Shown here: piece by piece, positions 44,912-54,652 of the stretch
How positions within the stretch are numbered: the stretch's first letter is position 1
Layout of the letters: each line of letters starts with the position of its first letter
Origin: Candidatus Sigynarchaeum calidifontis
GTDB lineage: Archaea; Asgardarchaeota; Lokiarchaeia; Sigyniarchaeales; Sigyniarchaeaceae
Direction of reading: 5' to 3'
DNA: 64,000 bases
Assembly: GCA_030587475.2 (NCBI GenBank)
Contig: JAUQYZ020000230.1
Coordinates: forward strand, 25,317 to 89,316
The notes under the pieces: model-generated
Database searches by the model: none
Told to the model about the DNA's origin: nothing
The model's input: the letters and a program-made list of their open reading frames with translations, nothing else
Position numbers and translations under genes: made by a program

Positions 44912-45331
44912 ATGAACGAGAACGAGAAAAACAACATCACGGAGACATTTAAGGCATCACTCGATTCGATCTTCAAGGAAAAACTCGCGCAAGAAAAATG
45001 GCGAAAAAAGCTGGAGAAATTCAACGCCCGCGTGAACCTGGCCGTCGTGTGCCCGCCCGACGAGGGGGCTGGTGCCGGGGCAAAGGAGGACAAGATTTAC
45101 TTGCATATAATAGCCGACAAGGGTGCTCTCTCGGTTGAGCCCGGCAAGCTCGACGATGCCGATTTTGAACTTGCCGCGTCGTTCGAGATTTTCTTCAACG
45201 TGGCGACAGGCGATGCATCTGCCATCAAGGCGATGTTCAGCGGCGCGCTGAAGACATCGGGAAAAGTACTCAAGAACATCAGCAAGCTCTTGTTCTTGCA
45301 GAAATTGCTTATTCTCGAGAAGCAGGCGTAG
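44912..45331 (+). CDS. SCP2 sterol/lipid-binding domain protein
   Basis: DADFEL...FFNVATG...AMFSGALKTSG. Confidence 0.75.
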   Translation: MNENEKNNITETFKASLDSIFKEKLAQEKWRKKLEKFNARVNLAVVCPPDEGAGAGAKEDKIYLHIIADKGALSVEPGKLDDADFELAASFEIFFNVATGDASAIKAMFSGALKTSGKVLKNISKLLFLQKLLILEKQA

Positions 45332-46515: not shown

Positions 46516-47610
46516 ATGAGGATGGCCGCGGAAGAAAATGACGAGTACGTGGTCGAACGGTTCACGCTCGACGATGAAAATTACAAGAACGCCATGCAAG
46601 TCGTCAAAGCAGCGTACCTGGCAAACAATCCAGAGGAAGGTGGCACGATATCGTTCACCGAAGAGGCCTTCAATATTTTCTTCGGTGCTCCTACGATCCC
46701 GCGGGATTACTTCGTCAGGGTCATTCACAAACCGACAGGCGAGATGGTCGGGTTCGAGGGTGCCATCCCTCGTACACTCTACATCAACGGCAAGACATAC
46801 AAGACGGGGGTGCCCGGTATGCTCGCGGTACATCCACAGCACCGTCGCAAGAACCTCGCGTTTCGCATCGGCGCCATGATGTTGAAAATGGGAAAGGAGC
46901 TTGGATATGAGGGCGGGTTCGGGTTTTTCGAGCCGGAGGCACACGGAATCGACACGTCGGCCGCCCTCGTGCGTGAAACGGGCATTCCGTGCCGGGAAAT
47001 CATCACCATCAAGAAATTCATCGTCCGTGTCTTCGACGTCAAGAAAATGTCCCAAGTCATCAAGACCAAGTGGTACGAGAAGCTCGGACTTGCTCTCTTG
47101 CAAAGCGTGCCTCGCAATAAGAACCCCCGCGTGCGGAAATACAAGCCCGAGGACGCGGAGCGCATGTTCGAGCTCCTGGAGGATCACAAGACGCATAACC
47201 AGGCATCATTCATCAGGGAACGGGAGGATTTCATCTGGTATTTGCGGCAACCGGGCGTGAACTGCGTTGTTCACGAGGGCACGGATGGAAAAGTCGACGG
47301 TTTCATGATCGCGTGGCGGTTCAACATCGCGGGCTTTGGAAAGACGCATCCGTTTGGCTGGCTGGACATGGTCCACATCTATCGCTTGTCCACGAAAGAG
47401 GCCGCCGATCTCTGCAATTACCTGGCCCAGACATCGAAGGAGCTCGGCTGGATCGGGTTACAATCCCCGTTCATCCCGTATTTCGACCCGGCACCGCTGA
47501 AGAAGGCGAAGTATGTCTTTTATCCCAAGAAACTTATCATCAACTTCTACCCTCTCGTGGAGATACCGCTGCCCGACAAGATAACTACGTTCTATTTCGA
47601 CTGGCGATGA
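46516..47610 (+). CDS. Tandem-GNAT acyltransferase, N-myristoyltransferase-like
   Basis: MVGFEGAIP...[13 protein letters not shown] in the first GNAT; the second GNAT starts VRKYKPED. Confidence 0.75.
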   Translation: [364 protein letters not shown]

Positions 47611-47657
47611 GCGATAGCAGATAAGATTAAACACCCTTGAGTGAACTGGTAAAAATC

Positions 47658-48497
47658 ATGCGCATCGGTGCACACATATCCGCCGCGGGCGGGTTCGAGA
47701 ACGCGATCAAGGGCGGGACGGAGATCGGTTGCGAGTCCGTCCAGATGTTCGTCAAGAGTAACAGGTCCTGGGGCGCGCGCGCCGTGAAAGACGAGGAATT
47801 CGGCACGTTCAAGCATACCCGTTCGGAGAATCCAGGGATCTCGTCTATTTTTTGCCACGGGACGTATCTCGTGAACCTGGCAGCCGAGGACAAGGAGATC
47901 CTCGCGAAATCGATCACGTGCTTCGAGCTGGAATACGACATTTCCACGAAGTTAGGGCTCGATTTCCTGGTTTTTCACCCCGGGGCCCCGAAAACCATGG
48001 GCCTGGACAAGGGAATTGCCCAGGTCGCCAAGTCGCTTAACGCCATCGCCAAGAAATTTCCCGGGAGCCCGGTCAAGATATTGCTCGAGAACACGGCGGG
48101 TCAAGGCTCCACGATCGGCCGTACATGGTCGGAGCTGCGCCAGATCCTCGATAAATTGGAAGAACCGAGGCGCTATGGCTTGTGTTTTGACACGTGCCAT
48201 GCATTCTCGGCAGGCTACGACATCCGCTCGGAAAAGGCCTATGAAAAGACGATGAAAGAGGTAGACGACGAGATCGGCCTCGATCGCATCTATGCATTCC
48301 ATCTCAATGATTCCGAGCACGAGCTCGGTGCCAACAAGGATCGGCACGCGCATATCGGCGAGGGCCAGATCGGGACGGAAGGGTTCCGCTGGTTGATCAA
48401 CGACGAGCGGTTCAAGAACCACCCCGGCACTGTCGAGACTCCCGACGAGGAGAAATTCCCACAAGACCTGAAACGATTGAAAGGCCTGCGCAAATGA
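47658..48497 (+). CDS. nfo: Endonuclease IV (AP endonuclease)
   Basis: IGAHIS, HGTYLVNLA, FHPG, LENTAGQG, CFDTCH, HLNDS, DRHAHIG and ETP. Confidence 0.95.
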   Translation: MRIGAHISAAGGFENAIKGGTEIGCESVQMFVKSNRSWGARAVKDEEFGTFKHTRSENPGISSIFCHGTYLVNLAAEDKEILAKSITCFELEYDISTKLGLDFLVFHPGAPKTMGLDKGIAQVAKSLNAIAKKFPGSPVKILLENTAGQGSTIGRTWSELRQILDKLEEPRRYGLCFDTCHAFSAGYDIRSEKAYEKTMKEVDDEIGLDRIYAFHLNDSEHELGANKDRHAHIGEGQIGTEGFRWLINDERFKNHPGTVETPDEEKFPQDLKRLKGLRK

Positions 48498-49123
48498 GCC
48501 GCAAGCGCTCCCCAAAAGTTCCTACAATGGACTCCTTCGCCTCTGAACAGGCCAAAGCCTACCAGGGCGCGAGGTGGATGGCACGGCTGCAGCACGCGAC
48601 CACCAGGCGGGCGCTCGAGCTGCTCGGGGACGAGCGACTCGGAGGCCGGATCTCTCGAGAAGCGATGCGCGAGGGCGTTCTACTAGACGTGGGCTGCGGG
48701 AATGGGTTCTCCACCGAAATTGCGATAGAAACAGGTTTCTTGCTCGTCGTGGGAATTGAAATATCCCTGGATATGCTTTTACTGCGACATCTTTCGAATT
48801 CAGTCGTCCAGGCCGATATGGCTCGAATGCCATTCCGGAATGGCATTTTTTCGTTCGTGATCTCTATCTCTGCCATGAATTTCTTATCCCAGGATATCGA
48901 AGACACCACGCTCGCCCGGGGGGTTTATGACGCGTTCGCGCGGCAGTTATATGCCTTGCTCGTGCCTGGCGGCCGAGGTGTCGTGGAGTTTTACCCGAAG
49001 TCGCCCGCAGAACTGGACGTGATCACCCGTGCCTTCGGCTCCAGATCCGGATTCCAGGGATTCCTCGTGATCGACAAACCCGGCACCCGGAAGGAGCAGA
49101 AATTCTTGATCTTTCGAAAATGA
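48494..49123 (+). CDS. Bud23/WBSCR22-like SAM-dependent methyltransferase
   Basis: Q...T.RALELL, LDVGCGNG.S, DM..MPFR.G.F..VISISA, EFYPK and GF.G.LVID.P. Confidence 0.8.
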   Translation: MSRKRSPKVPTMDSFASEQAKAYQGARWMARLQHATTRRALELLGDERLGGRISREAMREGVLLDVGCGNGFSTEIAIETGFLLVVGIEISLDMLLLRHLSNSVVQADMARMPFRNGIFSFVISISAMNFLSQDIEDTTLARGVYDAFARQLYALLVPGGRGVVEFYPKSPAELDVITRAFGSRSGFQGFLVIDKPGTRKEQKFLIFRK

Positions 49124-49196
49124 CCGCTCCCCACAATGTTTTTTTACCTTGGGAAAGGATTATCAACATCGCTCTTGCACGATAGATGGATTGGCC

Positions 49197-50747
49197 ATGA
49201 CCGGCAAGCTCGTGTACACGTTACTCTCGTCGGCCTATTTCGTTGACGAAAAATGGGGATACGGGAGTCCGCATCAAGGCATCATCAAGATGGGTGGCAT
49301 AGCGCACAAACCACGCAAGTTTGGCGGGAAAGATAATTTCAGCATCCCGGTCACGTGGCTCGTCACGCCCAAGTCCGCGTTGATCGAAAGAGAGTTACTC
49401 ACGAACTTCAATCAAAAATTCCGAGATCAAGTCGGCTACATGCTGAACGTCGACAACCACTCGATGAACCGCCACACAGATCTCTTGAAGCCAGAGCGCA
49501 AGAAGGATCTCGAAGCGCACGTCGCTCGCGAAATCGCCGAGATCAAGGAAATTCTGCCGTGGGCAGATATCCAGGTGGTTGGAACGGGCTATCGTAGCAA
49601 CAGCCTTGTTCAAGTGCTCGGCGATCTCAACATCCTCGGGATGTGGGGATCGTGTCCCTTCCAGATCGGGACGGATCACATAACCGATTTCGGGGCGCCG
49701 TGGGGGCAATGGTACGTGAACCCGCAGAATTACAAATGCCCGAAAAAGTTCCTCGGCAAGGTAATCAATCTTGAATGGACATGCCGCGATCTCAACAAGG
49801 CATTCCATTATGTCCAGCCAGAGGCCTATTCAACCGACCCAAACGATGCTGAATCCGAGTTCAAGTGCACGGACACGAACGTGGAGTATTGGAAGGCCTT
49901 GCTCGCGCAATACATGCGGAATCTCGATTTGAACGAGTATATATTCTTCCACCAGCACCAGGAAGCACACGAGATGGAAGCGACGCCAACTTGCGTGCCG
50001 TTCATGAAATCCGCCTCCGGGCGCATCGATTTCACGGCCAAGATGCTCGACCTGTTCCTCGACCACGTGGTCACCCAGAAAGACCTGTTGATAATGGATG
50101 CCAACGAAGCTGTAAGGCTCTACCACGATACTTACAAGGGCAACCAGCCCGAGTGTTACATGTATTTCGAGGACATCCCCATCCATGAAATCAACCCTGT
50201 CTACAAGAAACACGTGGAGGGAAGGCCCTTCAAGCCCAAGCACATTTACCTGTCTTTTAACGAGCAATTCTACAATTACGTGGACAAGTTCGTGGCCCAA
50301 GAAAACTGGTGGCTCAAGGTACCGCCGTGGAAGGAGTCCTTCTTCTACTACGATAGCGAGTGCATGCTCGTGTTCGACAAGCCTGGACAAGCACCCGTGT
50401 GGATATGCAATTACATGGAAGAGGAAGGCCGGCGGTTCGACGACGAGCTCATGCTTTCGGAGGAAAAGATCCCGCCGCACCTGGTGGAACACCAGATCGC
50501 CGATGAAAAGGGCGAGGTCATGAACGTGGCCATCGCGGTCAAGAGCGAAAAGGTAATGCCATATGGCATTGCCTTGTGGGGGAAAGATTTCGACCTGGCT
50601 TCTGTCGAGGTCGTGCACAGTGCCACGGCGGTGCATGCAAAGGTCATCAACGACACCTTGCTCTTCATACGGTTCAACGTCAACAAGGGACAGAACGAGA
50701 TCGAGCTCAAGGTGTCGCACGCGCTCAAGGCGGGTGCGAGCAAGTAA
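49197..50747 (+). CDS. Hypothetical protein, possible deacetylase/GH-type barrel
   Basis: Long ORF with typical codon usage; PVTW and GAPWGQWY segments. Confidence 0.7.
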   Translation: MTGKLVYTLLSSAYFVDEKWGYGSPHQGIIKMGGIAHKPRKFGGKDNFSIPVTWLVTPKSALIERELLTNFNQKFRDQVGYMLNVDNHSMNRHTDLLKPERKKDLEAHVAREIAEIKEILPWADIQVVGTGYRSNSLVQVLGDLNILGMWGSCPFQIGTDHITDFGAPWGQWYVNPQNYKCPKKFLGKVINLEWTCRDLNKAFHYVQPEAYSTDPNDAESEFKCTDTNVEYWKALLAQYMRNLDLNEYIFFHQHQEAHEMEATPTCVPFMKSASGRIDFTAKMLDLFLDHVVTQKDLLIMDANEAVRLYHDTYKGNQPECYMYFEDIPIHEINPVYKKHVEGRPFKPKHIYLSFNEQFYNYVDKFVAQENWWLKVPPWKESFFYYDSECMLVFDKPGQAPVWICNYMEEEGRRFDDELMLSEEKIPPHLVEHQIADEKGEVMNVAIAVKSEKVMPYGIALWGKDFDLASVEVVHSATAVHAKVINDTLLFIRFNVNKGQNEIELKVSHALKAGASK

Positions 50748-51661: not shown

Positions 51662-54652
51662 ATGGGTTTAGCTAAAGCATTTGGAAAGTATATGACGGCG
51701 AGATATCGATGGGCGAAATCCCATGATAAAGACAAGGCGGCCTCCGTTGTAGCACCTCGCGAGCACGCGACATACTATGCGAAGGATGCCGAGACGGTCT
51801 TGGCCGAGTTCAACACCGACGACATGACAGGTCTGTCCTCCGAGGAGGCTCAAAGGCGGCAAGTCGTGTATGGTTTGAACGAGTTACCGAAGGTCAAGCG
51901 CTCGATCTACAAGCTCTATTTCGCGCCCGTCCTGGAGAACACTATTATAATGATATTTCTCCTGGCTGCTGGATTTATGCTTGTGGTTAGTCTTATCATT
52001 CAAAAGTCGATCGTTTCTCCATTAATCAACTTTATCGTTATTATTCTGAATGCTTGCATCGCGATTGGCCAGCAATTACGAGCACAAAAATCGCTGGAAT
52101 CGTTGAAGCGACTTACAAAAAATGTTTGTACAGTAATTCGTGGCGGGATCAAGATCTCGGTCGATTCTACAAAGGTAGTTCCCGGAGACATCCTTGATTT
52201 GCAAGAGGGCGATCGCATAGTCGCGGACGCACGCATAGTCTCCGAGGCAAGTTTCTTTGTGAACGAATCGGCGATCACGGGGGAAAGCCAGCCCGTGCAA
52301 AAGACTTCCAAAACCCTTGCTGAAGGTGAAATAATCTCCGGCATCCATAAAATAAAGAATTGCGTTTTTTCTGGCACGTTCGTAACCAAGGGAAATGCCC
52401 GCGCGGTGGTCTTTGCCACTGGCATCCACACGGAAATCGGAAATATTTCGAAAAACCTGAACCTCGTTACCGCCGAACAAGAAATCCCCCTCAAAGGGAA
52501 GATCAACAAATTTGCGAACTGGCTAGCAATCTTCGTTGCCATCATGTTCGTGGCACTCTTGATATACGTGCTCATCGTCATGGCAACGATTCCTGGTTCG
52601 TTCACGCCAACGAACTTCTGGTGGCGTTTCGTCAATACAGTCGAATTAGCACTCAAGTTCGTCCCCATCAACATCGTACTGCTATCCACGATCATTCTCA
52701 TCACCGGCGTTCTGGCCATAGCTGCGAAGGGCGTGATTACGCGAAAACTCACGGCAGTCGAAGCCCTTGGCAGAGCGTCCGTCGTTTGCACAGATAAAAC
52801 AGGAACGCTCACGAAAAATGCAATGACCGTCCAGAAGGTCTGGGCGAACGACCGGCTCTTCGATGTCACGGGCCTCGGGTACTCGAGGGATGGCGCGATC
52901 TTGCTTGGTGACCGCGTGGTGAACAAGGATGACTTCAAGAGCTTGAAAAAACTCGTGATAGCCGGCTTGCTCGACAACAACGCGGAGGTCGTGGAAGAGG
53001 ACTTCAAGGTAGCACGGAAAGGCGAGCACGTGCAACTCGTCCGGAAGGTCATCGGCGACCCAATGGAAGGTGCGCTCGACGTGCTCGGCGAGAAACTCAA
53101 GATTTACGAGTCCGAAATGCTCAAGCACTTGAAATTCATCAAGGAATTCCCTTTCGACTCGGAACTCAAGCGCATGACAAAGATCTGGGCGTCAACGAGC
53201 CCGAAGATCAAGCACGAGTGGATGGCATTCATCAAGGGTGCCACCGAGCTGATACTCGACCGCTCCACGTCGATCATGGAAGACGAGGAGGAACACGCGC
53301 CCCTGGATGACAAGCGCAAGAAGCGCATAAAAGACGAGGTTCAGAAATGGGCGTCGAAGGGATTCCGCACGCTCGGCATCGCGTGGAAGGATCTCAAGGC
53401 GCTGCCTGAGGGTCGGGAATACACCCGGGATGAGGTAGAAACTGATATCACGTTCCTCGGCTTCGTGGTCATCCAAGACCCGCCCCGTGAAGGCGTGCGG
53501 GATGCAGTGCTTGCTTGCGAGCGCGCGGGCGTGACCGTGGTCATGATCACGGGTGATTCAAAGGATACCGGCGCGGCGATAGGCCGAGAACTCGGCATTT
53601 ATGACGAGGGCGAGATAGTCGTTGAAGGAAAGGACATCCCGAATCTCGATGACGAGACATTCATGAAAACCGCGGTCTTCGCACGCGTGTCGCCCAACGA
53701 CAAGCAAATCATCGTCAAGCGGTACCAGGACAAGGGAAAAACGGTCGCTATGACAGGAGACGGCGTGAACGACGCCCTCGCGCTCGGCATGGCGGACGTT
53801 GGGCTGGCGATGGGCCTCACGGGAACGGACGTGGCCAAGGAAGCCGCGGACATGATCATATCGGACGATTCATTCAACACGATCGAGCTTGGTATCAAGG
53901 AAGGCCGTGGTTTGTTTGCAAAAATCCGCACGATGATTTTTTTCTATATATTCGTGAATGTTGCAGAAGCGATCGTCCTCATCTCAACTTCATTCATCAA
54001 TATTGATTTCCGATTGTTCGACACGGGCTTGCAAATCAATCTCATCTACGTGTTGCCTCATACATTCCCACCACTCGGGCTTACCTTCGACCGGACGTCC
54101 ATGGATGTCATGAATGAGAAACCCCGAAACGCGGAGGAGATCTTCAGCAAGAACGTGTTTTACTTGCTCATCATCACGATTGCCTATATGGTCGTTGTCC
54201 TCATCATAGTCTCTTTTCCAATCATCAACTCTTTTTTGGCACAAGGCGCGAACGTTGCAACTCTCAACGCGACCATCGATCCAAAGACGAGAAACGAGTT
54301 TCAAAAGATAATTAACCAAGGAATGGCACGGCCGCGGACAATTGCATTCTGCGTGATTTTCATCGCGGAAACGGTCGCCGTGTTTTCCATCCGGCGCCCG
54401 AACATCCCCGTCTGGAAGAGTTTCCGCAAGGATATGAGTCCGGCCTTGATATTTTTCACGGTTTTGACATTCCTCGGGATGATAGGGGTCGTTTTCGCCG
54501 TTCCTTATATTCCCTTCTTGAACAATTATCTTTACGTTCAGACACTAAACGGCGAGGATTGGGCGATCATTCTTGCTTTGAGCTTGCCTATCATCGCCGT
54601 CGTCGAGGGATACAAGTGGTACATTCGTTCGGTGAAGAAAGAGATTATCTAA
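51662..54652 (+). CDS. P-type ATPase (type II-like core, atypical transport site)
   Basis: TGES, DKTGTLT, KGA, DPPR, MITGD and TGDGVND. TM4 reads VPINI. Confidence 0.93.
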   Translation: MGLAKAFGKYMTARYRWAKSHDKDKAASVVAPREHATYYAKDAETVLAEFNTDDMTGLSSEEAQRRQVVYGLNELPKVKRSIYKLYFAPVLENTIIMIFLLAAGFMLVVSLIIQKSIVSPLINFIVIILNACIAIGQQLRAQKSLESLKRLTKNVCTVIRGGIKISVDSTKVVPGDILDLQEGDRIVADARIVSEASFFVNESAITGESQPVQKTSKTLAEGEIISGIHKIKNCVFSGTFVTKGNARAVVFATGIHTEIGNISKNLNLVTAEQEIPLKGKINKFANWLAIFVAIMFVALLIYVLIVMATIPGSFTPTNFWWRFVNTVELALKFVPINIVLLSTIILITGVLAIAAKGVITRKLTAVEALGRASVVCTDKTGTLTKNAMTVQKVWANDRLFDVTGLGYSRDGAILLGDRVVNKDDFKSLKKLVIAGLLDNNAEVVEEDFKVARKGEHVQLVRKVIGDPMEGALDVLGEKLKIYESEMLKHLKFIKEFPFDSELKRMTKIWASTSPKIKHEWMAFIKGATELILDRSTSIMEDEEEHAPLDDKRKKRIKDEVQKWASKGFRTLGIAWKDLKALPEGREYTRDEVETDITFLGFVVIQDPPREGVRDAVLACERAGVTVVMITGDSKDTGAAIGRELGIYDEGEIVVEGKDIPNLDDETFMKTAVFARVSPNDKQIIVKRYQDKGKTVAMTGDGVNDALALGMADVGLAMGLTGTDVAKEAADMIISDDSFNTIELGIKEGRGLFAKIRTMIFFYIFVNVAEAIVLISTSFINIDFRLFDTGLQINLIYVLPHTFPPLGLTFDRTSMDVMNEKPRNAEEIFSKNVFYLLIITIAYMVVVLIIVSFPIINSFLAQGANVATLNATIDPKTRNEFQKIINQGMARPRTIAFCVIFIAETVAVFSIRRPNIPVWKSFRKDMSPALIFFTVLTFLGMIGVVFAVPYIPFLNNYLYVQTLNGEDWAIILALSLPIIAVVEGYKWYIRSVKKEII

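Follow-up and report, generated by a model that had tools for sequence, protein, structure and literature searches.

The enzyme N-myristoyltransferase (NMT) has been called universally conserved in eukaryotes (PMC7048800). The question raised by the locus studied here is whether an archaeon encodes a relative of NMT and, if it does, what that relative is likely to do. The stretch of DNA that was analysed, hereafter the window, comprises 64,000 nucleotides of the Asgard archaeon Candidatus Sigynarchaeum calidifontis (assembly GCA_030587475.2, contig JAUQYZ020000230.1, positions 25,317 to 89,316 of the forward strand). An earlier reading of the letters (the original prediction) had pointed to an open reading frame (ORF) in this window as an NMT-like tandem GNAT, and the ORF is present as it described:

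46516..47610, plus strand: NMT-like tandem GNAT, whole ORF with ATG start, 364 codons plus stop (protein P0001); basis: Pfam, PDB profile, fold, and single copy.

We conclude that its product is probably a genuine, full-length, distant NMT homologue, likely an acyl-coenzyme A (CoA) N-acyltransferase with the NMT architecture, a C-terminal base, and an amine as acceptor; this assessment draws on sequence comparison and a predicted structure. The protein belongs to an Asgard-centred clade whose members nearly always end in D-W-R; this clade is part of a larger family of NMT-like tandem GNATs in prokaryotes.

The gene is a real one, as supported by 73 close homologues of about 360 amino acids and by 29 invariant columns in the clade alignment. 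The nearest, labelled Candidatus Sigynarchaeum springense, is 86% identical, and the homologues that carry names come from Lokiarchaeia, Heimdallarchaeia, Thorarchaeota, and metagenome-assembled genomes of the "Asgard group", the one exception being labelled Smithella sp. Searches with the protein itself and with a profile of its distant relatives found one copy in the 5.0-Mb host genome, which is 89% complete. What is new is a prokaryotic variant of the NMT kind: public databases label the close homologues only as "GNAT family N-acetyltransferase" or hypothetical protein, and the literature we searched contains no description of an archaeal NMT relative, with the proviso that a 2020 review on the evolution of myristoylation (Meinnel, Dian, Giglione) may mention such sequences.

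By sequence comparison, the match to NMT is well above chance. The Pfam family NMT (PF01233) matches residues 18-116 with 33.5 bits against a curated cut-off of 25 (E 4.6e-8), and 23 of the 26 clade members match it at E < 0.01. When the single protein was searched against the PDB, the top matches were yeast NMT (E 2e-7). A profile of the 26 clade sequences reached E 1.5e-13, with NMTs only below E 1e-5 and neither Eis nor other tandem GNATs at E up to 1. Its match to yeast NMT consists of two colinear stretches, residues 18-120 on yeast 56-157 and residues 198-262 on yeast 222-294. HMMER aligned residues 34-115 with yeast NMT 103-183, including FISAIPVTL...EINFLCVHKQLRSKRL of the yeast enzyme, and residues 200-239 with yeast 255-294, including the yeast stretch LRKLKKEDIDQVFELF, while in the profile alignment VVHE..GKVDGF of the archaeal protein pairs with NMT VVEQPDGKITDF. 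Every pairing on which colinearity with eukaryotic NMT had been proposed by eye was reproduced by HMMER or by the profile alignment. Identity to eukaryotic NMT (EC 2.3.1.97; PF01233 + PF02799) is 13-19%.

All fold results rest on a predicted structure, an AlphaFold2 model built from the clade alignment (predicted local distance difference test, pLDDT, 91.5; predicted template modelling score, pTM, 0.89). The best 50 Foldseek matches to this model were all NMTs, with E down to 3e-23. In a structure comparison independent of Foldseek, covering 48,161 chains, yeast NMT scored Z 30.8 (root-mean-square deviation, rmsd, 2.9 Å over 335 residues) and Cryptosporidium NMT Z 30.3; comparison of NMTs with the model gave Z 30.8-32.5 and rmsd 2.6-2.9 Å over 330-341 aligned residues. 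The tandem GNATs that are not NMTs scored lower: MAB_4324 Z 23.0, Eis 19.5 (rmsd 5.9 Å), MshD 15.3, FemA 13.6, and FemX 13.0-13.4, with Fem rmsd of 5.5-6.2 Å. The original prediction had named Eis and FemABX as the structural matches that could displace NMT; they stand at Z 19.5 and 13.6 against 30.8-32.5, and its description of an NMT-like tandem GNAT in an archaeon is upheld, NMT being on top by sequence and by predicted fold. On the strength of the sequence and the model, the protein is composed of two fused GNAT halves in the NMT topology, and NMT is its closest fold. As in human NMT1 (5O9T/6QRM) and yeast Nmt1p (2P6E/1IIC), one chain carries both halves, with residues 6-364 colinear with human 151-496. 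Two GNAT halves per chain, with a donor-binding N-terminal half, are also found in MAB_4324c (7Q3A), Eis (3SXN), MshD (1OZP), and FemA/FemX (1LRZ, 4II9). Eis, however, has about 400 amino acids and a third domain (PF13527 + GNAT + SCP2-like), whereas the protein studied here has 364 amino acids and two halves; by fold, sequence, and domain count it falls outside the Eis type, with which it has only the generic PF13527 match on the N-terminal half in common, and by fold and a conserved CoA loop it falls outside FemABX.

In NMT, the catalytic base is the carboxylate of the last residue (PMC7048800), and this use of the C-terminal carboxylate has been called unique to NMT among GNATs (review, PMC4964394). 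The corresponding part of the archaeal protein is its tail:

47593..47610, plus strand: predicted catalytic C-terminal carboxylate, tail Y360-F-D-W-R364 plus stop; basis: D-W-R conservation and overlay on NMT ends.

Model residue 364 overlays the last NMT residue in human (496), A. fumigatus (492), yeast (455), C. albicans (451), L. major (421), and P. vivax (410). With the engineered human NMT1 deltaC2 and deltaC3 structures, the alignments end at model residues 362 and 361, respectively, which puts the tail in residue register with NMT. The MAB_4324 alignment, in contrast, ends at model residue 347, short of the tail. The terminus is D-W-R in 71 of the 75 full-length homologues and D-F-R, N-W-R, or S-W-R in the remainder, and all clades of the superfamily end at one alignment column, with a tail of the form Y-x-[DE]-x-[R/I/...]. 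The likeness to NMT thus extends to a last residue superposed on the catalytic one and a clade C-terminus fixed in both length and sequence, although the NMT tail is hydrophobic and ends in Leu or Gln where the clade has D-W-R. A check proposed with the original prediction, whether the C-terminus reaches the active site, came out in its favour, as the tail overlays the catalytic C-terminus of NMT in the predicted model. The tail fits an NMT-type catalytic C-terminal carboxylate; this is in-silico evidence and not proof.

The remaining parts of the protein could be assigned as follows.

46531..47055, plus strand: N-terminal GNAT half, approximately residues 6-180, predicted to bind acyl-CoA; basis: PF01233 and Acetyltransf_9 matches, yeast NMT alignment, secondary structure.
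46615..46656, plus strand: Ab-loop-like segment Y34..F47; basis: HMMER alignment, with G42 and F47 invariant in the clade.
46810..46872, plus strand: predicted oxyanion-hole bulge strand V99-P100-G101-M102-L103 and CoA-pyrophosphate motif; basis: alignment to EINFLCVHKQLRSKRL of yeast NMT.
46930..46944, plus strand: E139-P-E-A-H143 motif at the site of the NMT Thr282 "catalyst platform"; basis: spacing and bacterial-clade alignment.
47113..47553, plus strand: C-terminal GNAT half, approximately residues 200-346, predicted to bind the acceptor; basis: residues 198-262 align with yeast NMT 222-294; PF02799 unmatched.

In human numbering, Tyr180 of the Ab-loop pairs with Y34, a position that is F or Y across the clade, and Tyr192 pairs with the invariant F47, and the loop resembles that of NMT in its length and in the aromatics at both its ends. 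The predicted strand-bulge and the CoA loop likewise align with those of NMT. In the sequence alignment, the human oxyanion pair Phe247/Leu248 falls on M102/L103 (clade consensus W-L), after the invariant P100. The CoA-pyrophosphate motif reads H109-R-R-K-N-L-A115 (clade consensus H-Q-R-K-G-L-A); H109 is invariant in the clade as well, and V105 and A115 are nearly so. By analogy with NMT (PMC7048800), we infer the roles of the bulge and of this motif. The CoA loop differs from that of NMT in having the canonical GNAT form Q/R-x-x-G/N-x-A and not the NMT variant. A second difference is the conserved E-x-x-x-H in the clade where NMT has Thr282: E139, P140, and H143 are nearly invariant, and the bacterial clade described below retains both the Glu and the His (E127 and H130 of A5, by hhalign). 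E139-P-E may be the sequence equivalent of Thr282, and the E139/H143 motif hints at proton handling partly different from that of NMT. In the C-terminal half, H253, W267, G273, G281, D284, W312, Q316, P318, P321, and Y322 are invariant.

In the mechanism that we propose, the N-terminal half would bind acyl-CoA via the R/Q-x-x-G/N-x-A loop at residues 110-115, the thioester carbonyl would be held on the backbone bulge at M102/L103, and the C-terminal half together with the Ab-like loop Y34-F47 would form a groove for the amine acceptor. The carboxylate of R364, presumably buried, would take up the proton of the amine and so serve as catalytic base, perhaps with help from E139/H143, and the products would be the N-acylated acceptor and CoA. 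Guided by the model, our best guess for the acceptor is the amino terminus of a peptide or protein. Eukaryote-style recognition of Gly2 and a preference for C14 are not supported.

The same architecture is found well beyond the host lineage. The clade profile matches 61 of 400 genomes of the phylum, namely 27 of 31 in family f13, all 12 in f18, 10 of 14 in f3, and 3 of 135, as weak matches, in f4. Family f4 belongs to the same order as the host genome; strong matches there number 0 of 135 and matches to any member of the superfamily 1 of 135. Families f5-f7 (e.g. G123-G129) have no member of the D-W-R clade and carry two to four divergent NMT-like paralogues each, of 350-420 amino acids, which match a mixed profile at E 1e-25 to 1e-36. 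An exhaustive search of representatives yielded further proteins of about 350 amino acids with 17-27% identity, many of which match Pfam NMT, with 13 of 34 matching NMT_C; profile searches of a set of 5.8 billion proteins with distant members returned prokaryotic relatives only. In a maximum-likelihood tree, the D-W-R clade and a second, small Asgard group (P0091-like, one member labelled Sigynarchaeota) are sisters with support 98, and both lie apart from the other clades. The tree and the control genomes take in prokaryotes only. The largest other clade, with the tail Y-E-V-Q-I, is bacterial and comprises 127 species genomes, mostly Candidatus Aminicenantes, with Deltaproteobacteria, Zixibacteria, and Gemmatimonadota among the other labels and some members on complete chromosomes. 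Profiles of these groups were compared with NMT:

Asgard clade, 26 sequences: best match to NMT 54 bits.
Bacterial clade, 26 sequences: best match to NMT 41 bits.
Mixed set, 34 sequences: best match to NMT 101 bits, spanning both protein domains.

All three sets thus match NMT with comparable profile strength. The Asgard and bacterial clades are clearly homologous by sequence (hhalign probability 99.85%, E 1e-30, 326 columns). Bacterial members, for example those encoded on OY969762.1 and CP070750.1, have about 350 amino acids, the same C-terminal column, and the Glu/His motif in common with the Asgard clade, from which they differ in identity (about 22%), in the Y-E-V-Q-I tail, and in their domain of life. 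The bacterial profile matches NMT mainly via the C-terminal half (its 41 bits), whereas the Asgard profile does so mainly via the N-terminal half (its 54 bits). The structure predicted for one bacterial member (pLDDT 93.1) scores Z 32.0 against yeast NMT and has its last residue on yeast 455. NMT-likeness and the tail are therefore properties of the whole superfamily and not of Asgard archaea alone, and since bacteria have the same fold and the same flush C-terminus, there is no Asgard-to-eukaryote speciality in them.

A number of observations weigh against the reading of the protein as an NMT homologue with NMT-type chemistry. On the N-terminal half, the top Pfam match is Acetyltransf_9 (PF13527, Eis-type GNAT; residues 22-129, 38.8 bits), which slightly outscores Pfam NMT. 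NMT_C (PF02799) has no match to the protein at E up to 10 and is absent from a six-frame search of the whole, 89%-complete host genome; two of the 26 clade members reach E < 0.01 with it (best 5e-4), and its curated cut-off is unlikely to be reached. Of the two profiles against which a check had been suggested, NMT was thus passed and NMT_C was not matched. The strictly conserved Gly2 pocket of NMT consists of Tyr180, Tyr192, Asn246, and Thr282 (PMC7048800). Here the set is incomplete: the aromatics are kept as Y34 and F47, while Asn246 and Thr282 are lost. In the HMMER alignment Asn246 falls on G101, which is variable, and Glu244 on V99; the Thr282 site reads E139-P140-E141. Of the Lys7 pocket, Asp183 and Asp185 are lost, with the Ab-loop reading N37-N38-P39-E40-E41, and Asp471 appears to be lost too, the stretch F-G-I-G-D471-G reading Y-V-F-Y-P-K when paired by eye. 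The absence of the EINFL and DDD motifs, which the original prediction had noted, is borne out by these pairings (E244 to V99, N246 to G101, DDD to N37-N38-P39). At the other end of the protein, the structure alignment starts with model residue 6 on human 151, yeast 74, and P. vivax 66, and only five residues precede it; the B'A' core region and the ribosome-binding N-terminus are therefore absent. The lost B'A' region accounts for about 35 residues of the N-terminal core; the upstream segment, which in NMT is Lys-rich and binds the ribosome, is missing too.

Seven matches to acyl-CoA dehydrogenase indicate that acyl-CoA metabolism is present in the host genome; acyl-CoA-binding protein (PF00887) was not found, which in an 89%-complete genome is uninformative. 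No conserved neighbours hint at a substrate, as no family occurs in more than 5 of 21 loci when the ORFs within 10-15 kb are clustered across the phylum. Proteins starting with Met-Gly do exist. The nearby P-type ATPase (51662..54652) starts MGLAKAF, as the original prediction stated, and a stop codon lies seven codons upstream. Among eukaryotic ESCRT-III proteins, Vps20/CHMP6 is myristoylated. A host ESCRT-III paralogue starts MGIIESLK, MGIIESLKNWLF (P0224; G000:C165:10350-10979, outside the window), and its orthologues (L124-L152) have the strongly conserved start M-G-F-L-K-D-[IL]-S-x-W-L-S-G, an N-terminus that we take to resemble the myristoylated one of Vps20/CHMP6. In a few of the orthologues, which read IGFLKD, none of ATG, GTG, and TTG is present at this point, a sign that the start codon may be unusual. 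Gly2 of this paralogue is, however, equally conserved in family f4, which is without the NMT-like gene; it is kept both with and without the gene and hence does not track the enzyme, and we rejected it as support for a substrate. Asgard Arf proteins, for their part, have no myristoylation signal (PMC11914678; bioRxiv 10.1101/2024.02.28.582541).

How far do these points favour another reading? A small-molecule N-acetyl- or N-acyltransferase, acting on an amino sugar, polyamine, amino acid, thiol precursor, or antibiotic in the manner of Eis, MshD, GlmA, or MAB_4324 and having only ancestry and scaffold in common with NMT, is in our judgement a somewhat unlikely alternative. It would account for the leading position of Acetyltransf_9 on the N-terminal half, for the canonical Q-x-x-G-x-A loop in place of the NMT variant, and for the Glu/His pair, which sits at the site of the general base in many GNATs. 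Tandem GNATs of this kind are the next-best folds (Z 17-23), but NMT is far ahead of them (Z about 31 against at most 23), and the PDB profile search that excluded everything but NMT below E 1e-5 did not bring up Eis. Patchy distribution and bacterial spread would suit an accessory metabolic enzyme, yet no biosynthetic or resistance genes are conserved beside the gene, and a C-terminus that is flush and invariant is characteristic of NMT.

That the protein functions as an N-myristoyltransferase of the eukaryotic type is quite unlikely. Such an enzyme would explain why NMT ranks first in both the sequence and the fold comparisons, why the tail is in register with the catalytic tail, and why the Ab-loop keeps its length and its two aromatic positions; acyl-CoA metabolism and Met-Gly starts (the P-type ATPase at 51662, the ESCRT-III paralogue) are also available to it. 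The residues that read the substrate in NMT, Asn246/Thr282 in the Gly2 pocket and Asp183/185/471 in the Lys7 pocket, are nevertheless lost, NMT_C is unmatched, the ESCRT-III Gly2 is conserved in a family with next to no NMT-like genes, Gly2 or a myristoylation signal is missing from Asgard Arfs, and Aminicenantes bacteria hold proteins that are equally NMT-like. Protein N-terminal acylation in Asgard archaea, which the original prediction had put forward as possible, is a conjecture weakened by the lost pocket residues (N246/T282 and D183/D185/D471), by the missing B'A' and ribosome-binding region, by the bacterial equivalents, and by an ESCRT-III Gly2 that is present regardless of the gene. 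We give almost no credence to a protein that does not use acyl-CoA, either an aminoacyl-tRNA-dependent enzyme like FemABX/Sbb17 or a scaffold without catalytic function: FemA, FemX, and Sbb17 are also built on a tandem GNAT and are listed among the fold matches, but as far weaker ones (Z 13-14, rmsd 5.5-6.2 Å), Fem enzymes use aminoacyl-tRNA whereas the CoA-pyrophosphate loop is conserved here, there is no coiled-coil insert, and motifs resembling an active site are so well conserved that catalysis is the likelier case.

The reading that we retain, an acyl-CoA-dependent N-acyltransferase of NMT architecture, bears on evolution as well. A prokaryotic family with the NMT fold and a fixed C-terminus is a concrete candidate for the source from which protein myristoylation arose, and this origin is open to experiment because the protein is small, soluble-looking, and of a single domain architecture. 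That NMT-type N-terminal or amine lipidation predates eukaryotes in Asgard archaea and some bacteria, that eukaryotic NMT descends from this superfamily, and that the gene encodes a surviving representative of the ancestral enzyme, at work on archaeal proteins, is, taken together, a quite unlikely proposition. Because the family is wider than Asgard archaea, the substrate-reading residues are altered, and the ESCRT-III Gly2 does not track the gene, a tree with eukaryotes in it is needed before the protein can be listed among the "eukaryotic signature proteins" of Asgard archaea.

Around the gene, the order S25e, NMT-like gene, endonuclease IV, methyltransferase, P-type ATPase is kept in near relatives only and in 0 of 11 distant loci; adjacency to a ribosomal protein was rejected as a clue to function, since the gene order is not kept beyond the near relatives. 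The endonuclease IV gene (AP_endonuc_2) begins 27 bp past the NMT-like stop and is followed, with a 4-bp overlap, by a class I methyltransferase gene (47637-49123, plus strand). The three genes form a possible transcription unit, in this genus-level lineage only. A small protein of the SCP2 sterol/lipid-transfer family is encoded 1.2 kb upstream (44912-45331, plus strand; Pfam E 1.5e-7), an adjacency not kept in distant loci. Between the methyltransferase gene and a histone-deacetylase-family gene lies an ORF of 532 amino acids (49149-50747, plus strand) without a Pfam match, whose position is conserved in two Sigynarchaeum-like contigs (516 and 532 amino acids).

Some individual members of the family deserve mention. 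The Smithella sp.-labelled member with a D-W-R terminus (P0012; contigs L153-L155, 52-113 kb) is 57% identical, and an Mfd/TRCF gene is located 2.9 kb away. Of 41 Asgard genomes of the host's order none yielded TRCF, whereas 10 bacterial control genomes did, and the nearest relative of this member, P0009, is labelled Lokiarchaeia; it probably represents a recent transfer between archaeon and bacterium or a mis-binned contig. In two closed genomes of family f13 (G015:C1:1011617-1012702; G016:C1:1138304-1141232), the NMT-like gene appears to be split or rearranged, its N- and C-terminal parts having separate strands or separate locations, and these copies are possibly pseudogenes. Finally, the metagenome proteins P0112 and P0146 (361-365 amino acids) form a long branch with the bacterial clade, yet end in Y-L-D-W-R in the manner of the Asgard clade, a tail that could be due to convergence or recombination.

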